Shown here: one piece after another, positions 7,601-48,399 of the stretch
How the letters are laid out: each line of letters opens with the position of its first letter
How positions within the stretch are numbered: the first letter of the stretch is position 1
Assembly: GCA_051362555.1 (NCBI GenBank)
Contig: CM120640.1
Location: 53,298,788-53,362,787 of the forward strand
Direction of reading: 5' to 3'
Length of the DNA: 64,000 bases
From: Lingula anatina
Taxonomy: Eukaryota; Animalia; Brachiopoda
The notes under the pieces: model-generated
Seen by the model: only the letters and a program-made list of their open reading frames with translations
Told to the model about the DNA's origin: nothing
Database searches by the model: none
Made by a program: the position numbers and the translations under genes

Positions 7601-9894
7601 AACATTATTATTCATAATTCTGCCCCCCCCTCCTCTCCAAAAGGGATACCCTCTGATATCAGGGTCCTCTAAAATAGTATACAAAATTAAAGTGTAGACC
7701 ACTGTGGGCACTCACCAATCAACTCGTCTGCACTTACATAACTACCCTTCCCCTACCTGCTCCTTAAACAGTAGATAATTGTGGTGTTGGGTGTAATCAC
7801 ATAGCTGAGCATCTGGAGTGGAGGGGGGGGGCTACTGCATTTAAATTTACTGTCCTGTTGTCTGAGTCTGCTGTCTGTGTTTAGTTGCATTTTCATAAGA
7901 CTTAAATAAAGTTTTGTTGGGTTCTAAGCGTTTCTTAAAGGAGTGGGCTGTTTCACAGAACCTACTTCTAATACATTATCATGCTTGCTGAGTTACCACC
8001 TGGCTCTGATACTACCTAGGGGATTTGATATGATGTTAGATGGGCATTATAATCCTTGAGTCTTGTCATAGTGAGATAACCTTAAATATGAAGTTTTTAA
8101 GTGTACGTGTACACAACAGGATAGTCTGTAGGGGACCTATCTGTAGGGGATAATATTGTAGAGCTGTTCAGTGTATGCAGTCATCATATAGAACAGATTT
8201 ACTGGTAACTAAGTTTGTGAGATAATGTGTTTTACACTTAATTTTTGCATTCATATCAGATATGTTTTTAATGCTAGAAATACATTTATTTTTCTAGGTT
8301 TATTTGATTTGATTGTTGGTACAACTTAAAACATTGTTATAAGACTAATTATTATGAAGCAAAATCTCATGGAAAGATACTGTAATGTTCTTTTGATAAT
8401 CAGTGCATATTCAAAACAAATAAAGAGAGGTTGAGTTAAACTTCATTGAAGGCTAGTTCAAACTTCACATGTAGTAATATTATGCCTTCCAGTATTTATA
8501 GTTGCTATATTGAAGGAGAGGAAGAAATTATTTTCTCAATTCAATAATTGGTTGGTGTTGGTGGCAAGAACGGGAGTCACCCTGTGTTGCTCGAGCAAGA
8601 ACACCTTGACGACAGAGTGCCTCGATAAATTGATAAAATTCTGAGATAGATACTTGAACGTGGTTAGTAATTTTCCAGTATATACTTTAGATTTGATAAT
8701 TGTTTAAGATTATCTTTCATGGTAAGTATGTTATCAATAAGATGCACAGTGATAACAAATCGGGTAAATGCACTGGCATGTCTGATTTGGCAAAACATAA
8801 ATATGCATAAATATGTATACTGATGTTATATCCGTGAGATAACATAATTTTGGAATTTTACACTTAGCTGCATGCAGTTTTTCAGAAAGGAACAAAGCCA
8901 TTAATCTATACCCTATTGTCAGATTGTTTCTGCAGTCAGACTATATTATATAAATAATCAGCAGTACAGAATTGTAAGATGAAACAATGAGCTAACTACT
9001 GCTTTTGTAATGTGTATCTCCTTCACATGCCATACATCAGTTTAAAAGCTAAAGCTTTTTAACTAACAGACTAGAATGCGATTTTTGAAGTTGATAGTAG
9101 GATAGTAAGCTGTCATTATATGAACTTGCATGCCTGTTCATTTAATTGACCGAGTAGCTTTATTGGATCTTCTTTATAGGATACATGATGTCAACCACAT
9201 AAGTCAAAAAGATATGGGGCTAATCTTGAGACATATAATGCTTTAATACATACACTTGCTTTTTATGTATGTTTTGATGGTATTGGAAACTTAGTGGAGA
9301 AAAGATGTGAATAGAATTTAGATTATGAACATGTATGTGGTGGAAGTGGGGAATGTCCTACTGGTGCTCTAAGATGTATGTCATAGTAAGCCAAGCATCA
9401 TTTTATCAGTCTGGTCATGGTATTCTGAATAGTAGTGCATAATAAAGTATCCATTGAATGAAAGATGCACCAAGTACCACAGATGAAATATCAGGCATAT
9501 GTTTGTAAAATATATACATGGATTGGGTGCTGAGTTGATGGTATGAGATTAAAGATATTTCATTTGGTATTTGCTTAGATTTAAACTAATATAGACTTAT
9601 ATAGTATCGTAACACGTACAAATACAGATAAGAAAAAAGGTTCTCTTTTGGCTCTGATTTATTTAGAAAAATGTAATAGGACCATATGATATAATTCCTT
9701 GATAGGACATACAGCTGATTTGGTATTAAGGCTAAATCAGGTTTTTAGGTCTTCACACAATTTCTTAAAGTGATGGAATTGCTTGGTACATTCTTGTTGT
9801 AAAACAACATGATAAATGGTTTTAACCATATGGACCTAGTTTAATCTTTGATTCTGTTATTGTAAGTTGTCTGCAGTGTCTAGTGGTGGTATAC

Positions 9895-10190
9895 TGTAAA
9901 AATCTGACTCTCCTAAAAGGTGACTCCCCAGTCAAAATTTCAATGCATTTATGAAATTTTGACTCCCCCACGAAACTTCATAAATCTAATTTTATTTGAG
10001 TATATGACTTTTATCTTGTAGTATGCATAATGGAGGATACATTGGCACTTTTTTGTTAGTTTGCAGGTTAGGGTTAGGGTTAGGGTCAGCCCCTTTGGGA
10101 GTCAAGATTTCATGGGGGAAGTCAGATTTTCATAATGAAATCTTGACTCTGGGAGTCAGATTTTTATGGGAGTCGTATTTTCGTGTTACA
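9895..10190. mobile_element. Fold-back MITE-like element with repeated subterminal (tctgactccc) units and central (TTAGGG)3
   Basis: Left arm tgactc(t/c)cc units mirror right-arm gggagtca units; termini tgtaa...ttaca; ggttagggttagggttaggg at ~10066-10086. Confidence 0.65.
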
Positions 10191-10876
10191 TTGGGGATGG
10201 GGAGACATGTTATTCACATAGAGTTTGCTTGGATAGACTGATACTAAGTTAAACTTTCACAGTTGGACTAAAAATGTGCCTTTAGTGCATGGAATAAATG
10301 TATTTAATATGCTCTCAAGAGTTGCATTCAATCTTCACCCAGCTGTGTTGACATTTCCCCATCTCAGAGTGACAATGATCAGTATTGATTGAGAAATCAG
10401 ATGCAATAATCTCACTTTGCTGAAGTGTCATACTGGAATGATATTAATAGTGGGGAATTTAAATTGGCTACAAGTAAGGCATGGCATGTGCAGACTGGTG
10501 GTATTTCCCTCCAAGTCTGTTCACTGTGCTTGATGTCTTTTGAGGAGTACAGTAATTTCCTCTACAGGGAATTCATAGTGATAGAGCAGAGTACTACCAG
10601 AGACAGCTAATCTAAGTTACACACTCAGACTTCAGTGGGCATCCCTTTGATAGTACAAAAGTATGATAAGGACAGTTTGTTTTCACTGATCTAATATTTA
10701 ATGCTGCTGTGAATTGGTTTTCTCCTTTCTGTATTTTGATTAGCCAAGCCCTTTGTTCTTACTTGTCTTTTCTCCAATCTTGTCATGTCAGTTATATGGT
10801 GTCATTAAATTTGAATTTAACTGGTCATGCTTAATGATTATCTTTTCTTTTAATTTCTAGGTTACCAGTCATTACA

Positions 10877-10894
10877 ATGAGGACACTAACATAA
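10877..10894 (+). promoter_or_regulatory. Short uORF (MRTLT*) 24 nt upstream of the main ATG
   Basis: atg agg aca cta aca taa lies between the acceptor at 10860 and ATG 10919, in the same frame. Confidence 0.5.
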
Positions 10895-10918
10895 AGCAGT
10901 CCCCAGGAACTTAGGGCG

Positions 10919-11708
10919 ATGCCGAAGGCTAAGAGGTTAGAGGCCTTGGTATCCATACTGCGATATCCAGGGGAAGTTCTAACATGGCTGGGGCTTATAC
11001 AGTTCTTCGTCTTTGCTCTGTTCCGTTTCCCAGCAGTAGGGATCACAAAGGAGATTCTGTATGATGGTGAGGAGGAGGGGTTCAAATGTAACCTTACTGG
11101 GTACTATGCTACACCAACGGCAGCCACACCTAAAGAGACCCTGGCATGTTATAAGATATACAAGGGGCCAGTGACAGTATCGATATTGTTGGCAGTACAA
11201 GCAATAGCCATTTTGGTTATGTGGGGAGGATACTTCATCTATGCCAGGTTTTGTAATGAGGTTCTAGAACACTCCAACTTGTCAGTTCTTTACGGAGGAT
11301 GCCATGATAGACGGGCCCGCCTCGTCACTCTGTATAGGATACAGACATTTTGCAGGGTTCTTACCGAGATATTATTTGTATCAATAAAAGTCAGTAACAT
11401 CAATGTGAATGTCCGGAGTTACCATGTCTGTTCAAGCACTTTTAACCAGTTTGTCCATGAAGAAGATGACCACACCAATCTTACAACACCAACTTTAATA
11501 TGTTCAGTGACACGATTCCATGACAAGACAGTATTTCTCCATGCCCTGTTAGTTATTGATATTGTAAGCTTAATTCTGGCCCTGATTGACTTAACGGTGG
11601 TGTGTATCCATGACCCAGACTATTTGTTCCCAGGACATCGAAAGATGCAAGTTGATGATGATAGTGCTAACCAGAGTCTGACTTCCATGAGATATACCTC
11701 TACACCAG
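10919..11708 (+). CDS. Coding exon 1 of connexin-like/NB-ARC/TPR gene: connexin-like four-TM domain (aa ~20-228) plus linker
   Basis: Acceptor tttctag|g at 10860/10861; in-frame stop (10892-10894) upstream of ATG 10919; donor CCAG|gtacag at 11708/11709 (phase 1). Translation follows connexin motifs in order: FFVFALFR-x-ILYDGEEEGFKCN-x-CY-x-LLAVQ (cf. LFIFR-x-VWGDEQSDFxCN-x-CY-x-WVLQ) and LY-x-FCRVLTEILF-x-C-x-CSVTRFHDKTVF-x-VSLILALIDL (cf. Y-x-FKxxFEVxF-x-C-x-CFVSRPTEKTVF-x-VSLxLNxxEL). Confidence 0.85.
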
Positions 11709-14700
11709 GTACAGTAAAATACAATAATTATTTGCAAATATTAAAAAGATATAAAAGCAGCATACATATGTACGTATGTACAGACATACATGCCTACATG
11801 CATACTAGTACTCCTTGCATACTTGTTCCCCCCTTTCCTTTTATATTCCTTTTTTTAGAAAGTTGGAAAATGTGAGTGATCATTACCTAAGGATATATTT
11901 CAGTAAAGAAACCAATTTTATTTAAGAATGCTATTTTTAATTGGCCTTTCTTTATTTTTCATGTAACATATTCTTCATCATTTCTAGCTGTCATGAATAA
12001 TAAACTCATCCACTTCTCAATTGAGTTAAGCAAAACAGTCAGTTGCATCAGTGTATAATTTATAGGTTTCAAGTTGTGAGTTGAATGTTAAATAAAGGTC
12101 TTTTTTAGTAGATATGATGGTTTTCTGAAGATAAGATTTAGAGAAGGTGATCGATCCTTTGCATTTCAGAGGATAAAAGATTTCAATCAAACATTAAAAT
12201 AAAACTTGGTCTTTTCTGAAATGAATCTGATGCTTTGAAGCATTCAGTTTTACTAAGAAAATGGTAATGTAGGGATTTTTTTTTTTTTTTTGCAATGCTT
12301 GTATCCTTCCTTCTCTGCCTTAACTTGGACATGATAAGTCTTTGATGTCTACATTAGCTTTATCCTCAAAGGTTAACTGATGCTCTTTATGGGAATTGTG
12401 TGTACAGCATATGTGCGGTTTGGTTGCAGAAAACAAGGGTAATACTACTGTGCTGGCTGGATGTGAGAGACATGGGCTGGCACAGAGAATGTGAACAAAA
12501 TGTTACATTTTGTGTTATGGTGTCATCTTTCTCTTTAATAACTTAAAATTGATATAACAGAAATGTTATGAAAACGCCATAAAGATGTATGGCTTCATAA
12601 TTCCTAGTATGGATATTTTGTTTCCCCATGTCTTACCTAACAACCAGAGAGGCTTCTTTGACCTTTTGTCTTTTAATGCAACATAGTCATTTGCAAGCAC
12701 CTAGGTAATCAAAACAACCACCAATGGTTTAAAGTTTCTTAGAAAAATAACAAGTAACCAGGAGCCTTGCAAGATGGTGAGGAAATTGTGTCTGATTTGT
12801 ATACATTAAAGCTAGAACAGTTTTTCAGCTATAAAATTTATGAAACTGATGTATGTTCGTATAGACAATAGCATTGCACAAGTAGAAAAAAATGCGCTAG
12901 CATTGGGTTATCTTGACGTCTATTTTTACATAGCATAATTACAATGTATGATAATGAGCCATCATGCAAATTAACTTTCACAGTGCAATATAATGGGGAA
13001 CAAAGAATTGTGCTTTTTTTGCTCAGGGAGTTGTGTATTTTCTCATCTCTTAGGATGCTGCATATCATACTCATTTCTGTAACAGAGCTTATAGCAGAGA
13101 GTGGCTCTCTCTTTCATTATGAGATTCATTAAGTCATGATTTGATGCATTTCAAACTAAATTTCCTGGTTTTCTCTTCCATGGTACAATAGAATGAAAAT
13201 AAATTTGACTCCTTACATACAGCCATATTGCCATATTATTTAGACCTTAAAATTTCTTATAATATAATATGTGAAGTGTGAAATAGCATCAGAATAGATT
13301 TATGCACAAGCTCATATAATCTAAATTCCATTAGTGGGCCTATAGGTTTAAAATAAGGCTGCAGCAATCCAAGGAGAACACCCTGCAAACCTGCTTACAG
13401 TTAACAGGGCTTGTGTTTGCTTTGTTCAGCATATACTGCAAAATAAGGTCTACTACCTGCATTTGGGTGCATAATACAAAGGTGTTTATCTTGTCTGGGT
13501 TTGATTTGAAAGAAGTGAGTGAGGAAAAGCTATAGAATAACACACCTGGAGAGAGACTGGGAATGGGCCCCTATGCTTTGAGAAAGATCTTTTGTAAAAT
13601 CTGTTTGTCGTAGTGGGGAGTCTCAAGCAGGTTTTTCTTGAAAGTTTAATCGGCCAAATTAGGGGCCACCAGAAATATTTGACCATGCCCTTGACAGAGG
13701 TCAGAAGGCAATTTACATAGAGTAATGAGGTGAAGTGACAAGAATGAACTCCCTTTTTACTGTAAAAACATTATGACAAAAGTAAATCATAACAAGAAGG
13801 TAAGGTTAGGTATAGTACAAAATGTACCAAGTAAATAAGGCTCTTTTCCTACTTTGTAAATGTACATGAAAAAAGGACTTCGTACAATTTGAAACTTCAG
13901 TTAAGAAGATGGTTATTATATATATGCAAGTAAAAATGTAAAAAAATATATATATATATATATTTTAGTACAGCATCTACAGTTAATAAACTGTTTTGTC
14001 CATAATACACTTTTGCTTCAAAGATGGATATTCAGTGACATTCAGTCTTGATGGCTTATTTTATCTACAACAGACTGATTTGAATTTATAAGACAAACAG
14101 TACATTTATCAGTAACTATTGAAACTCTTCAGAATATAGAAAACACAAAGCTAAATTTGTTTAAAATATGATAATTAAAAAAGCAAAACAAAAAAGTTAT
14201 TCACAAATAAATTCTTTCTCCTAAAAGCACATCACAAAGTACCCAACATTTGATATAGGCTTACTGTTTCTCAAGACCACAGCATAATCAGATCTGATTC
14301 AACCTAACGGAAGTCGGTGATTGCATTGTGGAGCAGAAAAGTCCATTAAAATGCTATTAAATGTCAATAAATGTATCAATACGGTAATGCAGCCTGACAT
14401 TAACAACACTGTCTTCAGGAAGAAACTTAACAATTGAACTTTGTAAGTCTGATGTTGGTAGCATTCCCTGCAACAATTTCCATTTGCAAACTTTAGTTAA
14501 ATAATTGTTATGCTGAATTATCATATCAGAACCATCTTTGTGTGTTTTCCAAACATTTGCATTATTATTTCTGTTAATTCAGTTTATAATTCACCCTCAA
14601 GCTATTAGGGACTCTTTACAAATGCCCTGTTATATCCAGATAATTGTGCACATGAACAACAGATCATATACATTTTTTTTTTTTTTTTGCAATCTCCATT

Positions 14701-16177
14701 GAGAACATAAATTTATATTAGTTTTCAAGATAATGGCAATTTATTTGATTATATGAGTAAGTACATCACCTGGTCTTTAGCAGGATATATTGTTTTCCTA
14801 AATCTTTACCCATTCAATTATGCTCTGTTTAGAGCATATTATTTAGTAATTTCCATTATGGATCACAGTGGTTCTGATGAAACTGGACTGTTTGAATTTC
14901 TTGAAATCTATTAACTAAGTAACTATAATTTGCAATTTAGTGAACAGAGTTGGGGGTGGCACGTTGGTTTTTAGCTAACTTTCAGTTTCTGCTGGAATAG
15001 TTATATTAACAAATGGCAGTTTACCTAAAGCACTGCTACTTTGATCCTAACCCTCATGTCCCTCACATAACCCAAATAGAGTAGAAGAAGTGCCATTTTT
15101 AAATGCGAGTCATGCACCAGCATAGCGTTTTGTATGAAGCTGAATGTTTTTTTTTTCTGCTGCAAGGTACGTACGTGCCTAATAAAGGTGTTTTGGGCCA
15201 TAACACCTTTGAGAAATTGTCCAGGCCCTTCCTAAACCCCAGTTAATTATAAGGTGTATGAAACTAAACCTGTGGCTTTAACAGAGGAACAGCAGGACAG
15301 GCATATGTGGAATTTTTTAACCAAAATTAAAGCTGATGCCAAATGTTAAAAAGATTTAATGACATTTTACTGCTTGACAAAATCTATTTGTTGTTTTAAT
15401 CCTGTTTCTGACCCAAACCACAGGAAATATGATTTTCTATAACAATTTCATGTTGGCTTGTTGAACAAAAGAATGACTAGTTTCTTAGAAGCAATAATAG
15501 CAAAATATTTTTCTTCCTGTGCACCTGTCATATCTAAAACAAGGCACTGTATGGTTTTAAGATCGATAATGTATTCTTGATAATATATGTAATTATTTTT
15601 TAAGCACCTACAGTAACACAGGGCATTGTTAAGGTTTCCACATGAAGAAAAAAGGATTTACTGTATACATTTTAACCAGTGTCTAATCAGCTATGTTAAC
15701 ACTGGTCTCGTGGCAAATTGAAGAGAAAATAAAGTTGAGTACAAAAAAATTTTGTTCATCTTACAGGACAGTATTTCTGCTAAAACTGGTGTCCTAAAGA
15801 GAAACATGTTAAAAGTCAGAGAAAAATTTTATCAGCTGTGTTATATTATAAGAAAAAAGTAAAATTTTCCTTCAATCAACAACTTAATATTGAAATAGTT
15901 TACCTCCAATATTTCGATGTCTAACAGTACATCTTCATCCCTGAAGACATGCTAAAAGTTTTTTCTCACAGACTAAGATAAATGCACAAGGAGTATACAT
16001 ATTCATTTATTGTTCACAGTGATTTTCAAAGCTTTGTTAAGATGCAAAAGTGCTTAGTGCTGCAAGGTGTCATAAGTTCTGAGCTTTAAAAAACAAAACA
16101 AAACAAAACATCCAATTTAGAAGTGTGGTAATGGTAGAGTTGTTTTGACAGCCCAATGCTGAGGGATGGGTAGCATG

Positions 16178-16214
<37 letters not shown>

Positions 16215-16221
16215 AGGGAGA
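16178..16221. repeat. Imperfect (AG)n microsatellite
   Basis: Direct reading. Confidence 0.9.
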
Positions 16222-17442
16222 ATTCTAACTGTAACATAAAGCAATATATTATGCTTTGCCCAGTTCTAACCCTGTTGGTGTATTGTATGTAGTATCTGTA
16301 CAATTATGCCTGTGCCTTATGTCCTGATACATGTTTTCTCCCAGGCACTCATCCATATAGTATTAGCTCTGTGTTTACTGTTATGAGATGGCAGGGGTTT
16401 ACCACATCAATTACACTGGAAGAAGACATGTCACAGCATAGGATGATGTATGACAGGTTGAATTAGGTTCATATTTACTGTACCAGGTTGGACACTGTTA
16501 TGTGTATACATGACTAAATTGATATAGAAAATAGTTTGCTTTCATTCTCATGGCTTATAACAAAGTACATGTCCAATATGTGTCTCACAAGCAACTTAGA
16601 ATATTTTAATAAGGTACCCTGTCCTACAAATAGGGCTTTTATCTGTCTCTTCTAGCTGATACTGTCTTGCACATTTTGTGTGTACATCGATTTATATACC
16701 TATGTGACGTGAGTCAGTGGGTGGTTACATATTTCATGCCAAAGGACAGGTCTACTTTCACCATACATGAGGTTTATGTCATAATTTACTCCATGTCTGT
16801 GGGTTTAACTTTTCCCTGGTTGATGAATTACCATATGTTGAAGTATCACAGTGATGTCCGTGCCTCATACCAACTAATGGTTGAGTACATACATGAGTCC
16901 ATCTGAGCCATAATTTTTTTTCTTAACATGGTTAGGCACACAATTTGACTTTGGAGATTTTTAAGTGACTGATTTGCATTTTGGAGTGGTCCTAAAATGG
17001 ATAGGCTACCAAGTGTGCTGCCTGGGGAAAGGTTTTAGTACTTGCACCACATGCCTTTTTTCCCACATAAGATTTTAAAAGTGGGATTATGTTATCAATA
17101 GCTTTAGACACATCTAAGCCCCTTTTCAAATCAGTGTACAGAATAACTGAGAAGGCTGTAAAAAACACTTATAAGTGGATGTGATTGCTCAGGCTCATCA
17201 TGTTTGTTATGCAACTGTTTTAGTGATTGAAAATGAAGAGATAAGGATGATTGATTTAGAATTGAAGCAGTCTGTGTATCTGTAAACAGAAATTTTGGCA
17301 AATTCAATTAATAAACAATGAATTTTCTTTTTAATAAACAGACCATTTGATTAAAGTTGTTTTTTAAATATAATTATAATTTACATTTTTTAAAATGATT
17401 TTAGTACATAGATTTAAGGGCATATTTTGTTCTTGTTTTCAG

Positions 17443-17553
17443 TAGCTCCCCCAGTGATCCATGTTCCCCAACCCGTGCCATATTTCTATCACAGCCATCA
17501 CATGGGCAGCCTGACCAAGGCCCTTGAGAAACACAGCTTTGTGGCTGTCACAG
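17443..17553 (+). CDS. Coding exon 2 of connexin-like/NB-ARC/TPR gene (pre-P-loop segment VAPPVIHVPQPVPYFYHSHHMGSLTKALEKHSFVAVT)
   Basis: Polypyrimidine tract and ttttcag| acceptor at 17442; ACAG|gtaaat donor at 17553; 111 nt, phase 1-1, open frame. It supplies the hydrophobic strand FVAVT just before the Walker A motif of the next exon. Not in the ORF track. Confidence 0.8.
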
Positions 17554-17995
17554 GTAAATGTACAATAAAATTTAATGGTGAAAATTTTGAAAAGACACCA
17601 TGAAGAATATTGGGGTGTTTCAAAAGCTCTCAACTAGACTGGTGTTAAACTATATAAACTGTTGAGAAAAACATTTCCTAACTCACAAACGAACCCATTT
17701 TTGATGACATTTATTGCCTTGTATGGACAAATAATTCAGCTTTCAATAAAAGTAATTTATTCAACACTTTCTACTGGTAAAAATGAAAAAGAGTAATATT
17801 TTAGTACAGCTTCTTCAGTGAGTAAACTATTTTGTCCATAAACATTTTCAAACATATAATATTATAAATTGTTTCACACAAAGATGTGCACTGCTTTAAA
17901 ATAGGGAAAGATCTTAATCAGTTAAATGAATGGAGGATTATCAGGATCAATGTAACCTTTTATTGTTGTAAATAATTCATTTTCTATTTCCCTAG

Positions 17996-20364
17996 GTCCC
18001 CATGGATGTGGTAAGACCCAACTAGCCTTGAACTTTGCACAAAGTCAACAAAAAGAGTATGGCATAACACTGGCATGGTGGCTACCTGGAACATCTGCAT
18101 CTGCCTTGGAGCACAGTCTGTATATACTGCACGAACGCATGCATCTGAATATGCCTTTTGCAGCTGAGGAAAATGCCAATGTACGTGTCGAGGGCCTATT
18201 GACTGGAACCATTGCACAGTTGTCCAAGCGATTTGGGAGAATCTTGCTGATATTTGAAGATGTCAATGAGTTGGGTGCCATGATAGAGAATGCTTTTAGC
18301 AGAAGGGATAAATTTATTGTGATTCTGACATCCAATAACCCTGCTGTCATTCAAGATGAAGATCTGGTGGTAAGGATAGAGGGGTTCTCTGATAACGAAA
18401 CCATGGACTTCTTCAAAATGGAGGATTCATTTCAAAATGCTGCAGACAACGATATTGTAGATGTTGGACAGACTCTAGGGAATCTCCCATTTGGCCTGGC
18501 CGTGGCCCGCTCTTACATATCACACGCAGAATCTGATATCCAAGATTACGTACACAACATCAGTGACATGAGTAACACTGGCACCATGCAGACTATTCAA
18601 AAGAAATTCCTTGGTCAGCATCATAAGAAAACTCTGGTCCAGGCATTGTTATTGTCATTTGACCGCATGCGCCATGGTGGGTACAAAGAGGCCATGAAAG
18701 CTTTTGAAATTGTTGCTTATTTCTCCCCACAAGATATCCCTAGTTTCTTGCTCCACAATGGGCAAAACGACAAGATGGATGACTTCCTGACCAAGCTTAA
18801 AAAATATTCCCTGGTGGCTAGGGATGATATTGATGGGATTCAAATGCTGTCTGTTCACAAAGCAGTACAATTGGCCCTGATGATGGAAATACAAAAGCAG
18901 GACCCCAATCATGCTTTGAAAAGGGCAATCTTTGCCTTACTGGGGCACATGGAAAGAGACATGAGGTGTGCTCAACATTACAAAATCAGCACACTGTTGT
19001 TGCCACATTTAGAATCAGTATTAAAACACTGTTTAAGCATGGAGCTGGATTTTGAAGGCTCCATAGGGAGAATTTGTCTCCTGAATATGCTGGGGAATTT
19101 GTATGCCAAAAAGGGAATGGTCATAATGGCTGAAGCTGAGCTCAAGAGAGCCAAGCAGCTGGTATTTGATCTGCTCCGGACGTCAGAGGATCAGCTGTAT
19201 GCAGAGGCAATAAGCCGTATAATGGTGCGCAGGCGCATGAGTTTCCGTGAGGTCACAAGTGACTTAATGACAAGCACCAAGGCAGACTTGCTGATGAACA
19301 TGCTGTCTGAAACCAGTTACAACAGTATGGATGAAAATGATCTTCTGAAACTATTGTGTACCCAGGTATTCAAACATCCTGATATTAAAGCACTTCAGGC
19401 CAAGCTGGGTCCAGTGGTGGTTGAACTTCACACACAACTTACCCCTGAGATGTACCTTGATCTTGTAGAAGAACAGGTGGGGACTCCTCTTGGGAAGATG
19501 AGGAGAATCTACCTAGCAGAGATATTCATCTCCATACTGTATTCTTATGGTTCCCTGTATTTCTGTCAGAATCCGAGCAGTGTTAGAAATGATCAGAAGC
19601 AGCTGTACATCAGTGATTTGAGGTTAGCCAAGAGATTATGCCAACTTCTCGACTCTGCCTTTCATTACAAAAGCATATATTTAATAGTGGCAGATCGCAA
19701 TGCTTTACTGTGTCTTGATTTTGAATACAGTAAGCTTACCCAGAAAGAACTTATCAAGAACTTGGAGCATGCCAAGGCAAGGTATGGGGACTTGCTTCAT
19801 GATCATGATGACTACTACTATGCTGGTGTTCTCAAACTGACAAGTCTTCACAGTGACCCATATCACAGAGTGTTCTGTCACCGACAAATAGTACGCTGCT
19901 ATATCCTGTTCATCAATCTGGAGACCTATGCAGACATACCCCAACTTCTGCGTGAAGGGCAGAAGCATTGCGACAGGATGCTGCAGATAGTGGAGGAGGC
20001 TCAAGAGGCTGGGTACAAAATTCCGCAGACTAGTTTGTTTTACAATACAGCTGCTGAGTTTGTATTGCTTCACAATACTCCAGGTTACACTGAGATGAGT
20101 ATTGAATACTATAACCAGTCGTATGAGGCAGAAGTCGTAAAGGCCAAGGTCACAGGAGCTCTATTAGAAGCAGTGTTGGGACTGACCAAGATATACAAGC
20201 AAGAGGGAAAGCATGAGGATGCTTTTGCCTATGCCCAAGAAGGTTTGAGGTTTGCTAAGCGACAGCCACTTTTTGCTAAATATCAAGACGAAGCCTTACG
20301 GCTTGTGAGGCAAATAAAGATAGAACATCCCTCTGTAAGCCGTGGTGTCTGTGCTGTTAGATAA
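17996..20364 (+). CDS. Coding exon 3 (terminal): NB-ARC-type STAND NTPase followed by TPR-like alpha-helical region
   Basis: Acceptor ttccctag|gt at 17995; frame gives G-PHGCGKTQLA (Walker A), ILLIFEDV (Walker B), FIVILTSN (sensor-1 position), LGNLPFGLAVARSYI (GxP/GLPL motif), LKKYSLV...MLSVHKAVQ (MHD-type motif), then TPR-like helices (LLNMLGNLYAKKGMVIMAEAELKRA; VLGLTKIYKQEGKHEDAFAYAQEGL). Continuous ORF to TAA at 20364. Confidence 0.9.
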
Positions 20365-23300
20365 AGATGCAAGATGGTTTAGACCATAAGACTATCCCTA
20401 TGGAGTGACACTACCCTGGCTTTTGTTTGCATTAAATGAATTTATTCTTTGATTGAGATATTCAGCACATATCAGTTGCCTGGTTTATGGCAAACATATA
20501 ATCTTTAAAAAGATTCTGTACAGATTCTTTTATTTAAATGGCATTTTTAGTATAATAAATACAGGGCAGCTGCTCTTTACATAAATATAGGGTGTAATGA
20601 TAACAATGATGCTGTACTACTATAAGTATTGAGACAGGAAATAATGTACTAAAAAAGAAAAAGAACCCTTTCATAACCTTGCTATTGCTTACTGTTCACA
20701 TGTGTTAAACCTTGTGTTTACTAAACAGCAAGTGCTAATGTGCATGAATGTGATCACCCCAAAGCTATGTATCACTGAAAATTCGATTACTAGGGCCTTG
20801 GAGGGCAAACTACCAGCCTTCATTTTCACTTTAATGGTATAATGTTATTAAATTGGAGGTTTAATGCTAGCTCAAGAAAATCAAAAAGCTAAAGAACTTA
20901 TGCACTGTTCAACAGTGGCTCTATATTTTTGTCTGATGCTAGTTTCTTTTCATAAACAGTTTTCTTGTACAAGGTATAACCATGGGTTTGAAGTCCAACA
21001 TTTTTTTGGCTGTTATGTAGTAACTGGTGACTTAGTCAAGATAAGAAATTAAAATATTAATAGATACGTGTAAAAGTGTCTGATTAAGATAAATTTGCAC
21101 GTATATTTATGTCCATAATCTGTATGTTGCACTAACCATTTTTTTTTTTTTTTTTTTAGAATTTTCAAATACTTGTAACAGTGGCTGGTTAATGTAACTG
21201 AATGTCCATTATTATTAGATTAGGTTTTTCCCAGAGTAACTATTTTATACTTACATTTTTAAATTTATTTCTATCATGTATTTGAACAAGATTCATAAAG
21301 TTACAGTGGTTAGTCTTATGACTGAAGATCTCTCAGACAGGATCACAGCTGTTTTTTTTTTTTTTTTTTTTTTTTTGAAATATTGCATTTATTGTTTTTT
21401 ATTATTTTTAAGCATTTAAAGGTATGTTGGACATGTCTGCTCTGTAGAAGAAAAGTAAATTTTAAAGGTCAGATTACTTAAATAATATATTGTGCTTAAA
21501 TATACAGTTTTAAGCATTGTTAACTGTTATGTTAAATGCTATCAGGCAGATATAACATGAACATTCCCATGAATTTCTTACCTCATGTTTATTCCACCCA
21601 GTAACCATATTGCCATGGAAACCAGAACAACAAATATATATTTTGCATTTTACTACAGTCTCAGCAACACCTCTTGTTTGGATATAGAAAGTTCAAGGCT
21701 GAGAAATGTATTTTGTGGTTCTCTGTGTCAAAGGCAGCTTTCAGTGATTGCATATAGAAATTCAGAGTAGAGTTGTACTCTACATATTATTTTGTCAGGT
21801 TTTATGTATGTATATTTTAACCTGCATGATTGTATGAGCTGGCAAAATGGAATAATTAAGCAAAGTGACTGTGTGTAAAATGCACAATGTTTTAAATGTG
21901 CACCCAAGATATTTAAGTTTTATTGTACAGTGGAAATGTTTGAAATGGTTAAAATTTAGACAGGTTTTCTCTTTAAGAGGAATTTTGTAAAAAGTGTACA
22001 TTTTTTACATATTGTTTTAGTGACTTTCTGCTGTCAAAAATGACACTGAAGCTGTTAATGTATTAATTAGATGTTTGGCATGTATACTGCCTCATTAAAT
22101 GAGAAAAAGTATTTGGCTCTTCACTGATCGTATGTGGTATCTTGCCAAGGCTTCCCATGCATAACTGCATATGTTGTAGTTGTCAGTTTGTTTATATTGA
22201 TTTTTAAGCATATTAGTGATATTGTTGTCAAGATGCATATAATCTTTTTAAATGTCAATTAAGTATCAAATCTCCCCAACTTTCTGGAAAAAAAAAGTGA
22301 AAAAGCTGTCACATTTAGCATGGAGTTTGACTCTACATATCTGATTCCCAAAGTCAAATGAGAGTTGTTTCTTTATAATGGAACATTTCATGGTGCACAT
22401 AATCTTATGCCTTCCATTATTTGTCTCTTATTTACTAGGAGTATATTTGTTTTGGTTAAGGATAAGGGAAATCAAAATGTAATCATTATTCCACAGCCTG
22501 CTTTCATTTTCAACACGCAGCTCTAAAATCTGAGAGAAAACCCATATATTTTATGAATATTATTCATTAAGGAGAATCAGCTTCTTTGCTTGTAGAAATA
22601 CAATAACAGGCACATTGCTGCAATTTCAGAAAGATGAATAACTATTTTTATTTTAAAATGGTCATTTTCTAAAGAAAATAGATGAAAGGTTACTTTAGAA
22701 TGATACATCATTTATCTTTCACAGTGAAAGTAACTTAATCTTTTGTTACCATTTCTCTTATAAATAACACCCAAGAACTAGAGCTAGACCAGAAATTACA
22801 TCAGTACTTGTTATATTGGTCATGCAGCGCAGATCTATTTACTGTAAGTAACCCAAGGTTGCCAATAGATATATGGTGTATTTGTCATTGGCAATGAAAT
22901 AACAGTTGAGAGAAATAGAAATTATATTGACATATGCTTAAAATATGTGTAAATGCATGAAATTGGAACCCCCACACAAAACCTATTCATAATGTGCATG
23001 GTGTTTCCTCGTTCTGAAAATGTGCTGCTTGGCAACCCTTTCTGTACAATAAACAGTCTGTTTATACCTTGCTCACAGTGATTTTTGTCAAATTAATCAG
23101 TTGGGTGCTTTAATAAATGATGACACAGAGCAGGAAACCTAGCATAAAGGTGGCAGGATGTTTGATTAAATACTATCTTAATTGCACAGTGAAATGTTAA
23201 ACTTCAGTGTTGTCCACAATGGAACACTCTTCCCGACTGGCAGATGTTGGAATTCCCAGAACATCAGGAGCAAAAAGAGTGTTCAGCAGAACAAGATCAA

Positions 23301-24570: not shown

Positions 24571-27500
24571 CTATGCTGATACCATTGGTGCAACTCCCAG
24601 CTCTTTGGCCAAATCTTCCTATAATACAATAAAAGAAATATGTCTCAAATCATAACAATCATGAACGATTTATAAATAATTAAATAATTTCCTCTACTTA
24701 ACTCAAAATATCTAAAACACTTGAATATGAAGACATACTGATAACTATGAATAATACATAAACTGGAAATAATACACTGTAAGTTTAAATATTAACCTGT
24801 GGTCCATCATCACTTCACAAAGGATGCATATATTATTATTAGCAGGTGACGCAAAGACCTTGTATTCTAAATATTGTGTATACAAACTAAAGCAATTGCT
24901 AATGGAATTACTTTAACAAAGGTTAAGAATTTAAAAAGAGAGGTAAAAGCATATTGTGATACAGATTGTTAAAAACAATCCAGCCAGCCTACCAGATAAG
25001 CAATTTGGTTTGGATGGTATCTTATCCCACCTTCCCTATCACATTGTGACATGTGTTTTCTCTCAGGGTCCCCAGCAACAAGGACTTCACTCTCACCTTC
25101 TGCCTGGAGAGCAATAATAAAAATATGTGAGAGACTGCAAAGAAATGTTGGCACCCAATAAAACCTTGTTAATTTTTTAAAATAAGATGGTTTCCACAGC
25201 AAATAAAGAATAACTTCATAGTTACACATAAAAAATTGCATTTAAACATAAGCTTACTGTTGTTTCTCATCAATGAAACAATGTCTAACAATGTCCTGGC
25301 TTGGAATTTTCATTACTCGGCAAGGGGGGGGGATACTAAATTGGAAAACTGAGAAGGCTTGGATTCAACTATTGATTGTTTATATCCCTTACAAACATCT
25401 TCCTAGTTAGACATGCAAATATACTTCTTTGCAGGTATAATTTTTTCTTACTGGTTCTAGATTTCTACAAGTATCCATCAATTCCTGCATCCTGTCAGTA
25501 AAGCCACTTGCAAAGTTCTCTGGGTTTATTGCTATAAAACACTGCCCCTAAAAAAGGAAAGAAACTACACAAAGTAAGCAAACAAATAAAATGACACCGC
25601 CTTTCTTCTTTCCAAAAACACCCTTTAACACAAAATATAAAGAAGCTCAAAACTTCTGATTATGATGTCTTTCATTGCTACAGTGAATCTTACAATCCAA
25701 CCATTTTCTATTAATGCCTCCTTGAATGCAGTCCCCTTTTCTGTATGGACTGGCGTATCTATAAAATGCTAATCTAAACCCACCACATAATGAACTTACC
25801 AGATTGGCAACTCTGTCAGTTTTCATCCATTTGCGAATATTTGGACCCCACTCTGCACCACTGAGAATTCCACAGAATATTTCCACCAACATGGCCAGCC
25901 CATACCCCTTATAGCCACCTAAAATATAGGAGTATCTTAATTTACCCATTTTTGTCGTGTGTGGGGGGTACAAGTAACAATGCAACAAGCAAATGAAAGC
26001 TATGTGGTTCAAGTAAACGCATAACAATAGCTCATACTGATACTTCTTACCACACTCTTCTGATCCTCCCAATGGCATCAGTCCACCTCCTTCCAAAACC
26101 TCATCTGGATTGGTGGTTTCCTACCAAAATGTGTAATATACCCCATGTTTTCATTTGAATCTACACTTGCATTCCTAAATGCATCCTGACAATTTAATTT
26201 CTCAGAATTCCAATTGATCTATTATACAAATGCACATCATCCAAAGTTTAATACTATAATGTTAAAATACAGAACTTGATTATACTTTATATCATCTTGT
26301 TCAGAAAATGTATAAAATGAGGAAAAAATGTTGCAAAACAAAAAAATCAAAAACAAAAATCTGTCTATAATTTGTATATTTGCTTTTACCTTTCCTGCCT
26401 GGTCTACACCCCAACCTTTTGGCATGTTTGTTCCTTTTCTTTGACAGATTTCGACCTGTAGTCAACAAACACAGTATAAGAATTTTTTCTATACATTGTG
26501 ATTTGAATATTCTTATACAATTATAGTAATAAATAAATGTTAAATTATAAGATGATTATGAAAAATCATCTTGCAAAATATCAGAGTATTTCAAACATTA
26601 TTTTCGCATCTTACAAACTATTACTTTAGATCACAAAAATTGACATTTCACTAACCATTACTTTAGATCACAAAATTTAATTGATTGTTATTCCTGGAAG
26701 GATATTCACCCCAAAGTAAAAACTTTTTTTCTTTTATATTGTGTTGTTCACACTTGCATGCTACAGTTTCACTTTCATATATGAATCAGTCACATTTATT
26801 GCTGTTTCCACATGATTTTAGTTTTACTTATGTTTTTACACTTCAATTAAATATTGGGCCAACCAACTGATATTCCACATGTATAACCACTTATAAAAAT
26901 ATATATTGGGTTTGTTGTACAGAATTTATCTGTATATTATAACAATTAGTCATCAGATGTGTGGAACATTGGTAATGGCATGCAGTAGTTACTGGGTAGG
27001 CAGGCCCGAATTTACCTTTCCATAGGCCACAGTGGTGGTAGCCATGTCTAATACAAAACTATCCCCTTCTTTTCCTGGGGCAGCCAAAGTCAGTGCATTT
27101 GTGCCCAAATGGGCCTATTTAAAATATAATCATTTGATTCATAAAGAGATTATTCAAATCATGCCCATTTCTAATTTTGTTTATAAGCAATCCAGCATTC
27201 TCATGAAAAAATCCTTCTATTCTTGACATTATACATGTATATCAGTGTACATGTTTTTCTGATGGTAGGGTGCCAGAAACTGAAATAAAAAGGTGGGGGT
27301 GGGGGGCAAAGCAACAGAGCATGCATGTAACTCTACCACATTTTTCTGAAACACAAAAAAAAAAAAAAATCAAACAAATGAATCAAAACACATAAACTAA
27401 ACAAATCAGATCACAGCACACCAACCAAAGTCCTCTATAAAGGCTCCTCTGTCACAGCAATCAATATTTATCTCACCTTCCCAACTGCAGCAGTGGAAGT

Positions 27501-30500
27501 TGCCATATCAAGCACAAAACTGTCTCCATTCTTGCCTGGAGCAGCAAGAGTTATGGGGTTAGTTCCTAAAGTTGGCTATTGTAAATTAAAGGAGAAAGTA
27601 AATAGAAGGTCATTATCAAATTTATGATTCTAACATATTTATTACATACTCTTTAAAACTGTATAAACAAAAGAATTTCCATTTAATTTTTGGAAAATAA
27701 AATCACAACCAGACATACCATGTATGTTGTAAAGGAAATATGGTATTATGGTAATGACTCGATCTTTTCCATGGGCAAAAATTATCAAATTTTCAGATAC
27801 ATCATTTTAAAATCATAAAAATTCTATTTTGTAACATTTATGGTGCTTTTGCTTTTAATGCATAGAATAGAACTATAAGGTAGTCTGCTTTTCAATTTTG
27901 TTGTTACCACTCAATAGAATTGCTCTTATTTTAAGAAATTAAGACTTAAAAAATACAGCATCTGTTAATTTCACAATTTTCCCCATTGAAAAGATCGAGT
28001 CATTACCTTATTCCAAGGAAATGAGAATTTCTTCATCTCACTATCATCAAATCATGAAAATAATGCGTCACAATAAATTCGTTAATATATTAAAATAGGA
28101 AATGATTATGACAATCATGTTTAATACTCACTTTCTATATAATTACTGCCAATTTATGACACCTTGTTCATCATCTACATAAATATTCTGCTGTAAAAGC
28201 CACTGACTACAATTTACATTGGAAAACGTGTCTTCTTTTGTTTTATAAAATTATGTTGAAATCTTGACAGATCTGTTAGTTACCATAATGATGACATGTT
28301 ATATTGTTAAGTTAAACAGCTGAATAACATAGATGAAGGTTAAACAGTTAAACAAAAATTACTGCAATGATTTTAAAACAAGGCACCGAAGCTGTCAAAT
28401 GTACAGACAAAAAGAAAATAATTAAATAAAAAATAGGATAATTTGTCAACTTTGTTGCAATATTATTTTAATACATATTTTTTTAAAAATTAGTGTGGAT
28501 TTTTCTGTTAAGCATTACAATGCTTATTCAAGTTTAATAGTAACTATGGGTGTATCTTTGCCAGTTTTTCAGATATGAATATAGTAGTATCTGTTTCAGT
28601 TGTAGAGATATAGGGGCTAGTAAATGTGTGAAGTGCATTTCATGTAGAAAAGTAGGTCAAAGGTAAAATTCCAGGTGAGATTAATATGCCCAGTATATGA
28701 TTTCCTATTCAAGTTGAATAGTAACTACGGGTCTATCTCTGTTATTTTTGGAGCTATACAGGCTGGAAAATTCAAAAACTGCATTTCATGGTGAAAAGTA
28801 GGTCAAAGGTCAAATACAAGGCCACATGCCTATATATGGGTTGCTGTATTCAAGTTTAATAGTAACTATGGGTGTATCTTTGCCAGTTTTTCAGATATAT
28901 GGCTGGAAAATTAGCAACGATCAGTTCAGGGTGAAAAATAGGTCAAAGGTCAAATTCAAGGTCGCATTAAGATTGCCAATGTGTTTTTAAAGGAGACCAC
29001 AAGTGTCATTTCTCACCATAATATTGCAGCAAATCAGCACAAACAAATATTTTTCCACAGAAAATTAAAATTTTTACAACATTTTGGCCACTTTGACCTT
29101 GAAATATAGGTCAAATGTCAACTCCAAGCTCATATTTGAAATCTTCATATATAACTTTCTGACAGACTTCTATAGTAACTTTTCCAATAATTCCAATGGT
29201 TTGGGAGATATTTAGCATTTAATTTTCAAAATATGCTTTAAAAGTAAAAAAAAAATAACAGCATAACCTTTTAAAAAATGGTCTGATTTTCAAACTCGAC
29301 CTGTATTTTATGAATATTCAGTTCTGTAGCTCTGGTTTTACACTTAGTGTTATCTCTGATGGCGACAGACCCAGGTGACGGCTGTATGTACAAACATAAT
29401 GTGTCTGTACATAAAAATACCACATACCTTTTTGGCTCTAGTTGGTACTTGTAATGGTGAAGTGTTAGTGAAAGACATGCCCTAAAAAAGAATAAAAAAG
29501 CTCACATCAATATGCAGACAAGATGTTTTGAAAAAAATAAAATGATGAATATAATGACTTTAAATAGTTGCACAATAAAGTTTATTTGGGTAAATATAGA
29601 AAACAGAAACACTGAAGATTTTCACTCGCTATCTTTTTAATAAACAATTGAAGTTTCATTTTTCAATAGCTATAGAAAAATTAACTGAGATTTACCACCA
29701 ATATTTTGTCTGCTGACAGTCAGACTTTATCAGGAAAATGGGGGCTTTAATAGGTCATTTTGTCCATACAAAATGTTCACATTTGTTCTGAGAAACAATT
29801 TCAATTCAGAAACAAAAAAGTGAATTTGGCTGTGCCTGTCTCCTACTCTGTAAGCTTGTTCCACTAATATTTACTCACAAGGGAATCTTCAATTTTTCTT
29901 TGACTATGCATGAAAAAAAGTACTAAGCCAAATAAAAGCTACATGTAGTACTTTAGAAAACTCAGAAAACACTGTCCCATCCTTATGATGACAGACAAAT
30001 GTACATGTAGATATGGTTCATACAGTATATAGCCAAAGAGCAAATAATATGCATAATGAGGATGCCATAAGTACTTTTTTCTTCATGCCCATTGTCAACT
30101 TCAATGTGGAATTTTGTTTAATCTAAACACATTTCTTTATTTGGATATTTTAAAGCTTCTCAAATATAAATGTTTCATCAAAAAGTGTCAACAAAATGTG
30201 CAACTTTTAGGTTGATCTGTTTTTGCAACAAACAATGTCTCTAGATTTTACAATGCATCTTACTAATTGTCTATTTTGACCTTAATAAAAAAGGTCAATG
30301 GTCAAGTCTACAGTCACATTGGAAACACACTGCACTGATGTTGAATCTTGGTCAGTGCACACAATGACTGGCAAAAAGTATATATTCTAATATAAAAGGT
30401 GTTGGGTAAACTGTTATCTTAATTTCTTTTGGTCTAAGTAAATGTAGATGTGGCAAGATTTTTTTTAGCAAATTAAAATCCACATTGCTTTCAGCTCTGT

Positions 30501-32027
30501 AAGCTTGTGGTACTAGGACAAAATATGCTACTGGTATTACCATCATTCCCTCTTCCAATGCTTGCAAACTGTAAAACCCAGCAATTCCATAGTGGTTAGA
30601 ACCTACAAGAACAATGAGATCATAGCTTGGCTGATGAAATACAGATTGAGGAAGCAAACGGAAAATTTAAAGACATATAAAAAATTATTTTTCAAATAAA
30701 ATAGTGATAATTTGTTGATTGTTTTTTCAAAATCAATTCAGAATTGGATATATTGTGCATATCTTTTCCAAATGAGGACATTCAGTCTTGATTAAAGTTA
30801 AATGTTGGCTGGGATGAAGCCGAAGAGGTGGGTTTATATGGATTATCAATGTGTTTACCTTTAAAAGAAATTACTGATAGAACCACAGTTGGCTGTTAAA
30901 AGCAGTCAAAATTGCTAGGTACCACGAATAGGTTTAATGACTCCATAGAACAGAGGGCCAAAGAGAAAAAGAACCTACCTCTGGCAACTACCCATCCAAC
31001 TCCAGTTTCCTTAGCTTTCTGTATTGCTATCTTCATACAGTAGTTTCCAACAACTGGGCCCAATACATTCTGCCCATCCACCAGAGCTGTGGCCGCCGAT
31101 TCTTTTACTGTTACCGGTTCCATATCATGAACTGTGATGCCAGACTTTATGTCCTTTACATACATATCTGAAATATTATTAAGGACTGAAAGGTTTTTTC
31201 TGATAACAATAAATTTCATTAAAATAACATATAATAATAGCAAATAAACAAAGTAATCTTAATTATTTTTTTTTTTTTTTAAATTAAAAATACAGTTGTT
31301 TCATGTGGTTTTAAGATTCAACAACCGAGTGGGTACACGCCCCCCGGGTACAGTACTGGTACGTACTAGAAGTACCACCTCTAAACACCCGTCTTTCTAT
31401 TCTAAGTTAGTCTTTCTGTATAATAACATACAGTGCAATATTGCATATACACTTCATTTAACCACTTATAAATGAAACAGGGATATTCATGTCCCTACGT
31501 AGTCGGTTAATTCCATGGCTATAATGTCCTCGGTAGTCGGCTTTAATTAGGGCATCTGCCAGCTGACTCGCGTGCTCCTTTTTTGTACCAACTGTTGCCA
31601 TGCAACGTTCTACAAAAGGCTTGATCTCCGTGAATTGGATCAACTTCCATCCCTCCTCTGATGCACTAGAAGAAAACCTTGTTTTGGGGTTATATGTTCT
31701 TAAACGATGTAAAAAATTCATACAAAATAAAAAATTTCTGCCCCTTCCAACCATGTTGGAATTCCCTTTTCAAGGACCAATCAGAATATGTTACTAAAAA
31801 AATTATGAACTTTTTTCATAAGTTTTATTTTTGTCACCAATAAACATAGGTCATGGACATTGACACTGTGAAAGAACTTAGACTATAGTTCTTTTGATTT
31901 CGATATTAAAGAAAACCTCTAAACGAGAAAAATTGACTGAAATACTAACTCGCCTCGATCTAAAATGACCTAGACAAGTGCGTGATGCAGCATACACTCC
32001 GTGAAATAGCCTCTTGATCGAAAGCAT
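24571..32027 (-). CDS. Ldh_2 family (type-2 malate/L-lactate dehydrogenase-like, YjmC/AllD-like) oxidoreductase, multi-exon, probably mitochondrial
   Basis: Exons (minus strand): 32027-31954, 31665-31499, 31167-30979, 30602-30541, 29481-29428, [27575-27477 or 27114-27016], 26455-26390, 26120-26051, 25918-25800, 25547-25452, 25103-24993, 24618-24571 (TAG). All phases are compatible. Family motifs ADYRGHYSHGINRL, VDGQNVLG, GSNHYGIAG, GTNP, DMATS, PLGG..GGYKGYGLAMLVEIFCGIL, VAGDPE. Confidence 0.93.
27016..27114 (-). CDS. Ldh_2 gene alternative exon B (AHLGTNALTLAAPGKEGDSFVLDMATTTVAYGK)
   Basis: 99 nt, tag| acceptor, AAG|gtaaat donor, phase 0-0, 25/33 aa identical to exon A, no stops. Confidence 0.8.
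27477..27575 (-). CDS. Ldh_2 gene alternative exon A (PTLGTNPITLAAPGKNGDSFVLDMATSTAAVGK)
   Basis: 99 nt, tag| acceptor, AAG|gtgaga donor, phase 0-0, canonical GTNP/DMATS motifs. Confidence 0.9.
27750..28007. mobile_element. MITE-like inverted-repeat element in an Ldh_2 intron
   Basis: ggtaatgactcgatctttt...aaaagatcgagtcattacc termini with degenerate inner arms. Confidence 0.7.
28525..29120. repeat. Degenerate tandem repeat (~140-180 bp units with caagtttaatagtaactatggg...taggtcaaaggtcaa)
   Basis: Three recognisable units starting ~28530, ~28710 and ~28851, plus a partial fourth. Confidence 0.75.
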
Positions 32028-35070: not shown

Positions 35071-35982
35071 TGACAACACGATGTTGGGTAAGTAGCATTT
35101 AGTAGGATTTCACGTATTTAGACTGTCTTGAGTTCATATCGGTCGATCCCGCTGATCAGCTGAAGCCTCAGCTTGTATATATCCTTTTCCCTTTGGTGTC
35201 CTTGATCGTGATATGAAGTTTACTTTATTTTATTTGGTTTACCTATATTTACGCTACTATTCCCCGTCGTTCATTCCCTCCAGCATGGCCGCGGGACTAG
35301 TGTTACGGAGCAAATATGACGTCACTGTAATCGGTTAATATTGTACAAGAACCTGGTAGGTTCTCCATCCTTATGTGGAGACTGTCCTATATGCTATTGA
35401 CTGCTTTCCATCCATTGAGAAGAGAAATATGTCCTTGATTGATGAAAAAACATACATATTGATCCAAAAACTGTTCACTCAGGAACTTATGCCTGGACTT
35501 TATTTTTTTTAAGTACATAAAGCTTATGCAGGATCAATTATTCCAAAGGTGTCATGATGTGAAAAAATATATAAATAACTAATAGTATTTAAATTATATA
35601 GAATTTTATGTGTTCACAAATCCATGCACTCGTTATTCCATAAAAACATCTCAGTGTGCTGCTTCTCCATTAATTACCCAAATGGCCTAATACTTTGCTG
35701 TAATACCATTTTGACTGGCAGACTTTCAGAGTAATGGCATTTTGGAGTTATGGATCTTAGAAATTATAGTAATTCATAGTAATAGGACTGGTCCACCCTC
35801 ACCCCCAATTTGAAGTACTGGGTCACAGCAATACTAATGGAATGTGTGTGGATGTTTTCAAGTAAAAAATTTGAAACTACTATAAATATTTTTAAATAAT
35901 TGAAATTCCATGTTGTGTCAGTAACGTACTTACATACAACCTATTTTAATCTATTTTCAGACACTAAGAGGTTCCTGACAAA

Positions 35983-48396: not shown

Positions 48397-48399
48397 CCA

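Follow-up and report, generated by a model that had tools for sequence, protein, structure and literature searches.

The stretch of DNA analysed here, called the window, comprises 64,000 nucleotides from the brachiopod Lingula anatina (contig CM120640.1, positions 53,298,788 to 53,362,787 of the forward strand). Near its 5' end lies LOC106159679, a gene that is spliced into one mRNA and encodes a connexin-like domain fused to an NB-ARC module of the STAND NTPase class and to C-terminal helical repeats. An initial annotation, made from the sequence alone, had joined two separate open reading frames into this gene through the junctions 11708^17443 and 17553^17996. It had suggested that the repeats sense a ligand and drive the assembly or gating of a connexin-type pore. 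Our analysis bears out the gene, its product and its domain order, and it weakens the idea of sensor-driven assembly. The gene has the following features. Several motifs were placed by alignment with P0004, a bacterial metagenome TIR-NB-ARC-TPR protein.

10861..10918, + strand: 5' untranslated part of the first coding exon, with an acceptor AG at 10859-10860 (sequence)
10877-10894, + strand: upstream open reading frame of 5 codons, in frame with the main start (sequence)
10919..11708, + strand: coding exon 1, residues 1-263, with the connexin-like domain (residues ~1-230) and then the start of a linker (Pfam, PDB sequence rows, Atlas, hydropathy)
11709..17442, + strand: intron 1, GT..AG, phase 1, with a tandem CAG/TAG acceptor, 17443 or 17446 (sequence, read ends, isoforms X1 and X2)
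17443..17553, + strand: exon 2, 111 nt, encoding a Pro-rich linker and the first helix and first strand of NB-ARC, up to the first P-loop Gly (reads, P0004 alignment)
17554..17995, + strand: intron 2, GT..AG, phase 1, interrupting the codon of the first P-loop Gly, G301 (junction reads)
17996..20364, + strand: coding exon 3, with the NB-ARC core, a winged-helix region and ~440 residues of helical, probably TPR-like repeats (Pfam NB-ARC at residues 287-523, NCBIfam, P0004)
17996..18018, with the first base in exon 2, + strand: Walker A GPHGCGKT, residues 301-308, intact (P0004 alignment)
18244..18264, + strand: Walker B LLIFEDV, residues 384-390, with Glu where P0004 has Asp (P0004 alignment)
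18319..18339, + strand: sensor-1 strand VILTSNN, residues 409-415, with Asn414 where P0004 has the Arg of TSR (P0004 alignment)
18478..18498, + strand: GxP motif GNLPFGL, residues 462-468, aligned to GDLPLAL of P0004 (P0004 alignment)
18850..18870, + strand: putative MHD equivalent SVHKAVQ, residues 586-592, aligned to SLHRLVQ of P0004, His kept (P0004 alignment)
20365..20800, + strand: 3' untranslated region, which may extend further (read depth)

The window contains two long open frames, 10895-11875 and 17956-20364. Joining 10919-11708, 17443-17553 and 17996-20364 (790, 111 and 2369 nt) through two phase 1 introns yields 1089 stop-free codons followed by a stop, and all four splice sites carry canonical letters (GT 11709, AG 17441-2, GT 17554 and AG 17994-5). 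The spliced protein equals, letter for letter, isoform X1 of LOC106159679 (P0002; RefSeq XP_013391495.1-498.1). Shifting the first acceptor by 3 nt to 17446 gives 1088 residues, equal to isoform X2 (P0001). The model was present in RefSeq beforehand as an uncharacterised protein, with the precomputed Pfam families PF00029 and PF00931. The ATG at 10919 is taken as the start because the stop of the short upstream frame lies in frame before it, and the RefSeq proteins begin at its Met. That upstream frame ends 24 nt ahead of the main ATG and could damp translation.

Nine raw RNA runs are listed under the same species label. Four of them (X1, X3, X4 and X7) were mapped to 16400-20800, a span from the 3' part of intron 1 to the 3' untranslated region, using ~6% of runs X1, X3 and X4 and 25% of run X7. 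From 9.5-12.4 million records, 57, 52, 40 and 93 reads were mapped for runs X1, X3, X4 and X7, respectively. The joint 17553^17996 (GT..AG) is crossed by 9 reads, with 2, 2, 3 and 2 from the four runs in the same order. At the other junction, loose read ends before exon 2, listed only with at least 3 reads, spell the end of exon 1 (10 reads at the 17443 acceptor, 3 from run X1 and 7 from run X3, and 3 reads from run X1 at the 17446 acceptor). Their 30-letter consensus equals window positions 11676-11705 or 11677-11706, and its last 24 bases, ending at 11705, are unique in the window. No such ends are listed for runs X4 and X7 at this threshold, and none with letters other than those of exon 1 are listed in the four runs over the mapped span. 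No read spans all three exons, exon 1 itself lying outside that span. Both sites of the tandem acceptor (17440-17445, + strand) are used in the reads, and the resulting isoforms differ by a single Val of the channel-NTPase linker.

Read depth agrees with this structure. Exon 2 is covered in all four runs (1.1-3.8 in bin 17429-17575), and depth is zero in the intron 2 bins 17576-17869. A low depth of at most 1.5 between 16694 and 17428 of intron 1 in runs X1, X3 and X7 may represent unspliced RNA. The 3' untranslated region is covered in runs X1 and X7 and in run X4 (first bin only, 0.1), and three stranded-looking runs show + strand RNA. Together with the canonical sites and the RefSeq identity, the reads at both junctions confirm a single spliced gene. 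They rule out two unrelated genes merged by a wrong model. A long alternative coding exon inside intron 1 is also ruled out, since the longest stop-free + strand stretch there has 90 codons. The initial annotation had named one outcome that would have separated the two halves, namely NTPase exons spliced to another first exon; this is not supported, as the loose ends are exon-1 letters.

Exon 1 shows the connexin homology first noticed there. On exon 1 alone, Pfam Connexin (PF00029) scores 34.1 bits against a cut-off of 31.3 (E 3e-8), and no other Pfam family appears at E ≤1; on the whole protein it scores 28.9 bits, under the same cut-off. In a PDB sequence search the best 16 of the 20 rows are all connexins, with Cx36/GJD2 and Cx43/GJA1 as the best rows, although at E 0.09-0.67 these are individually non-significant. 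The connexin matches are colinear at residues 20-59 (first transmembrane helix, TM1, to first outer loop, EL1) and 194-228 (EL2 to TM4). Atlas ranks connexin clusters at the top (0.90-0.92; best 0.92 with 204/256 features) and places pannexins and innexins at 0.76-0.79. Pfam, which finds Connexin only, and the Atlas ranking rule out an innexin or pannexin identity and place this N-terminal domain among the non-chordate connexin-like (CxL) domains.

The domain has the four transmembrane helices of a connexin, seen as hydropathy peaks at residues 24-42 (1.89), 85-103 (2.25), 147-165 (1.30, weak) and 205-223 (2.75). TM3 of connexins is usually weak in hydropathy. Typical chordate connexins have three cysteines in each outer loop, and the domain at residues 1-230 departs from this pattern with two per loop, C57/C77 and C171/C195. 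Both outer loops contain N-glycosylation sequons on the + strand, N58 (window 11090-11098) and N187 (11477-11485), and N58 aligns with the EL1 'CNT' of connexins.

Structure prediction from single sequences was uninformative. The AlphaFold2 model of residues 1-240 has a mean pLDDT (predicted local distance difference test) of 48; its order of helix, TM, strand, TM, TM, strand pair and TM fits a connexin, and its quality does not allow folds to be compared. For the whole protein the pLDDT is 40. Foldseek on these low-pLDDT models returned only solenoid proteins at high rmsd for the whole protein and nothing at E <0.001 for residues 1-240. VIA-align on the pLDDT-48 model gave generic helical bundles (best Z 7.4), with no connexin among 50 rows, and a four-copy complex prediction of residues 1-238 scored 0.00 without a verdict from the tool. 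The putative connexin fold is thus assigned from sequence.

The NTPase is of the NB-ARC type, as annotated initially. On the spliced protein, NB-ARC (PF00931) scores 32.4 bits against a cut-off of 23.5 (E 7.2e-8, residues 287-523), whereas NACHT scores 15.5 bits, under its cut-off of 26.7. The 18 Pfam families that reach E ≤1 on the whole protein include none of the LRR type. A NACHT-LRR type is therefore ruled out, and the architecture differs from that of the cnidarian NACHT proteins discussed below. Scanned by itself, exon 3 gives no NB-ARC match at E ≤1, consistent with the P-loop being split between exons 2 and 3. The Pfam scans of the protein recognised no output domain besides connexin. 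A search with the NTPase region among 5492 candidates gave two matches, LOC106159679 itself and P0004, which is 24% identical to the NTPase-repeat module over 456 columns. Exon 2 aligns with the P/NF motif preceding the P-loop of P0004, and Walker A, Walker B, GxP and the MHD equivalent follow in order (residues 301, 384, 462 and 586), colinear with P0004. We take SVHKAVQ to be the equivalent of the MHD motif. The N-terminus of P0004 is TIR-like by weak NCBIfam TIR-family matches (residues 7-85); the connexin domain occupies the same slot, which supports the effector position proposed for it at the outset. The order of effector, NB-ARC and repeats matches that of STAND proteins, in which the N-terminal slot is that of the effector, according to passages of PMC4986451.

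The arginine of the sensor-1 TT/SR motif is replaced by Asn414. In the relevant passages of PMC8559963, this arginine is replaced in some active plant NLRs, which keep ADP, and active resistosomes are compatible with the change. Since the substitution occurs in functional NLRs, its presence here does not exclude membership of the STAND class.

The C-terminal repeats are probably TPR-like. NCBIfam NF040586 (FxSxx_TPR) matches residues 284-641 with E 1.4e-29 and 103.2 bits, below its curated cut-off of 300. For residues 265-1089, the 10 Atlas rows shown all score 0.97-0.98, with TPR families in 8 and NB-ARC in 5 of them. The repeats are mostly helical in the pLDDT-40 model, and phmmer with the whole protein against PDB sequences returned only Cdc6 (E 0.04). 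The TPR-like helices proposed initially are thus upheld indirectly, by Atlas neighbours, NF040586 and P0004; they are not recognised as TPR by Pfam, whose TPR families reach E 0.15-0.5 and miss their cut-offs.

The gene is apparently single-copy, as judged from protein searches. With the connexin domain as query, LOC106159679 was the only relative among longer proteins (1 of 5579 candidates), and no relative of similar length was found at E ≤10 (926 candidates of 132-420 residues). phmmer against 1.84 billion representatives returned LOC106159679 and one Cys/Thr-rich repeat protein (E 7.9e-4), which we rejected as unrelated. No paralogue or second Lingula connexin-like protein appeared in these searches, which count as weak evidence of absence because, run with single sequences, they did not recover the CxLs already described from anthozoans and Owenia either.

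The NTPase-repeat exon is clearly under strong purifying selection and is conserved, neither decaying nor diversifying. Forty of 45 differences between reads and window were listed; 8 in the 3' untranslated region were dropped, leaving 32 in the coding region of exon 3. They affect 30 codons, of which 25 changed synonymously and 5 non-synonymously, giving a pN/pS of 0.054 (503 synonymous and 1861 non-synonymous sites). The binomial P of 7e-13 is overstated, given the low depth, the origin of most differences in the more distant run X7, the lack of a matched DNA run and the neglect of transition bias.

Connexins were for a long time regarded as confined to chordates. A preprint of June 2026 describes invertebrate CxL proteins and connexin-NLRs (Butler et al., bioRxiv 10.64898/2026.06.13.731801). 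What we take from it comes from its main text. In UniProt it finds a connexin domain in 170 non-chordate proteins, of which 158 are from anthozoans, 10 from Owenia and 2 from L. anatina. The anthozoan CxLs are mostly NACHT-LRR NLRs, in line with the initial annotation's mention of connexin-NLRs in cnidarians, and those of Owenia bear STING, RHIM or P-loop NTPase domains; fusions of CxL domains to NACHT-LRR, TIR, caspase, STING and RHIM are described (Butler et al., 2026). The preprint traces connexins back to the ancestor of cnidarians and bilaterians and puts forward an immune origin. Two cysteines per outer loop are reported for anthozoan CxLs and epsilon-clade connexins.

The same study expressed a 27-kDa Lingula construct, laCxL27, in HeLa cells, where it formed depolarisation-opened, CO2-insensitive hemichannels, plaques and dye-passing gap junctions (Butler et al., 2026). 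The text gives no accession, and its construct names give the mass in kDa. Residues 1-238 of the LOC106159679 protein amount to 27.0 kDa, its two isoform proteins match the number of UniProt records, and our searches found no second Lingula connexin-like protein; laCxL27 is therefore very likely the connexin domain of LOC106159679. The channel domain alone would then probably reach the membrane, open on depolarisation and form gap junctions. A mass of 27 kDa is too small to hold the NTPase. If laCxL27 is this domain, the pore assembles without the NTPase, and it is here that the sensor-driven assembly suggested initially loses ground. The sequons N58 and N187 are odd beside the gap-junction formation reported for laCxL27; should the two be the same, the EL1 sequon is no bar to docking in HeLa cells.

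LOC106159679 shares with the anthozoan CxLs an N-terminal, one-exon CxL domain, two cysteines per outer loop and the fusion to a STAND NTPase. The anthozoan CxL-NLRs combine NACHT with LRR and are mostly single-exon, whereas LOC106159679 combines NB-ARC with helical repeats in three coding exons. With vertebrate connexins it has PF00029 in common; it differs in having two rather than three cysteines per loop, longer loops with sequons and a STAND tail of ~860 residues. Its four-cysteine pattern resembles that of the epsilon-clade Cx23 (Butler et al., 2026). NB-ARC proteins with TPR repeats occur in fungi, as stated in parts of PMC4986451, and with TPR or WD40 repeats in placozoans, as stated in parts of PMC6321704. 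Bacterial and fungal NB-ARC-TPR STAND proteins likewise have an NB-ARC domain, a winged-helix region, a repeat module and an exchangeable N-terminal slot. In LOC106159679 the NF040586 score is 103 bits against a cut-off of 300, the repeats are much diverged, the sensor-1 Arg is absent and the slot holds a four-helix membrane channel instead of a TIR, HET, PNP_UDP or death domain.

We tentatively propose, with a little less than even confidence, that the protein forms a connexin-type large-pore channel whose opening is regulated by its cytoplasmic NB-ARC STAND switch. The connexin ring would self-assemble and hold ~six NB-ARC-repeat tails together under the pore. Binding of a cytosolic ligand to the repeats would free the NB-ARC domains from autoinhibition, and these would then associate into a ring. 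This ring could act through the ~55-residue linker after TM4 to change the opening of the hemichannel or junction, so that ATP-sized signals would be released or coupling with neighbouring cells altered. The lack of the sensor-1 Arg suggests that ADP may be retained in the active state, as in plant RPP1. The kept Walker A, GxP and MHD-equivalent His, with the purifying selection, count for a working switch, and the repeated fusion of CxL domains to immune modules counts for a STAND-regulated pore. Several points weigh against the proposal. The Pfam TPR scores miss their cut-offs, Walker B is a variant and the sensor-1 Arg is lacking. The lack of a detected paralogue and the low pN/pS are as compatible with a conserved housekeeping function as with an immune one. 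Neither the preprint's main text nor our work contains an experiment linking NTPase and pore, and cnidarian constructs with NACHT or caspase still opened to voltage or CO2, so that these fusion partners had not kept the channel closed (Butler et al., 2026); LRR-bearing full-length proteins are not described as assayed in that main text. According to the part of PMC6321704 that treats them, NOD proteins whose repeats are of the TPR, WD40 or ANK type seem uninvolved in the recognition of pathogen-associated molecular patterns.

The main rival is a conventional gap junction or hemichannel, gated by voltage, in which the NB-ARC-repeat tail has become a non-switching scaffold for trafficking, plaques or partner binding, with no immune role. 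The absence of detected paralogues, the strong purifying selection, the low, steady expression in all four mapped runs (40-93 reads), the lost sensor-1 Arg and the gap junctions made by the Lingula channel domain alone (Butler et al., 2026) all fit such a protein. Against it, Walker A, GxP and the MHD-equivalent His are kept, the loss of the sensor-1 Arg is tolerated in active plant NLRs (passages of PMC8559963), and the CxL domains of other invertebrates are mostly fused to immune modules; we consider this reading somewhat unlikely.

Signalling could also run in reverse, with the connexin ring as a membrane platform or upstream sensor (of voltage or small-molecule entry) and the NB-ARC-repeat tail as a relay to cytosolic partners. 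CxL fusions to the output domains caspase, TIR, STING and RHIM fit a platform role, and no STAND domain is needed for the channel to open. We hold this to be improbable, given that no recognised output domain accompanies the connexin here and that the N-terminal slot of STAND proteins is the effector's (PMC4986451, in the passages cited above). Less probable still is the form of the earlier idea in which subunits stay apart until ligand-driven NB-ARC oligomerisation builds a ZAR1-like pore and causes cell death. The domain order is compatible with it, and the tail of the full-length protein could block assembly; the 27-kDa Lingula construct and the NACHT-bearing cnidarian constructs nevertheless formed channels, and cell death is not reported in the preprint's main text (Butler et al., 2026). 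We dismiss as barely credible a main product made by read-through of the exon-1 donor into a short stand-alone connexin ending at the stop at 11875, with the fusion minor: the frame is open to 11875 and poly(A)-like hexamers stand at 11740, 11999 and 12091, but no 318-residue product was found among the proteins of 132-420 residues, the named members of the protein cluster are isoforms X1 and X2 only, and the listed loose ends before exon 2 are exon-1 letters only (reads on 16400-20800).

In the ZAR1 resistosome an NB-ARC switch is coupled to a membrane pore, and the pore forms only after the soluble receptor has oligomerised. LOC106159679 has the same pairing of NB-ARC switch and membrane pore; its pore domain is predicted to be an integral membrane protein and likely self-assembles. 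If mutations in the switch gate the pore, a regulated channel of this kind, pre-assembled in the membrane, would be a second NLR-like wiring from sensor to membrane besides resistosome-type pores. The main text of the preprint contains no demonstration that the pore is controlled by a fused NLR module (Butler et al., 2026). LOC106159679 offers a clean test case: it is apparently single-copy, expressed and conserved, it has a different class of STAND switch, and its channel domain probably already functions in HeLa cells.

The connexin-NLR class is already in print, and the channel domain of LOC106159679 has probably been assayed already. A connexin with an NB-ARC-TPR partner was not found in the literature searched, where the preprint alone concerns invertebrate connexins with NLR domains. 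The words 'NB-ARC', 'TPR' and 'tetratricopeptide' have 0 occurrences in its main text, though its supplement may list the architecture (Butler et al., 2026). This partner, unreported within that literature, suggests that connexin became a STAND effector a second time, independently, as judged by the class of the partner domain (NB-ARC versus NACHT). It would argue for repeated independent coupling over one ancestral connexin-NLR. A bolder version, which we regard as doubtful, holds both that connexins were recruited as STAND effectors at least twice (anthozoan NACHT-LRR, brachiopod NB-ARC-TPR) and that the brachiopod protein, a channel able to form gap junctions, is under the direct gating control of its own cytosolic sensor, opening or cutting coupling on ligand.

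Upstream of LOC106159679, arms at ~9890-9990 and ~10090-10200 look reverse-complementary by eye, around a few TTAGGG units at ~10067-10087, and are possibly a small inverted-repeat element. Downstream, the window contains a multi-exon gene of the Ldh_2 (malate/L-lactate dehydrogenase) family at ~25650-31770 on the - strand, three exons of which match PF02615, and a BTB-BACK-Kelch gene at ~35968-38557 on the + strand (PF00651, PF07707 and PF01344). The G+C content is 0.51-0.52 at 48001-50000, compared with ~0.35 in the surroundings. An open frame at 57665-58222 on the + strand has a signal-peptide-like start and no Pfam match at E 0.001; it contains a motif reminiscent of a TGF-beta family propeptide.

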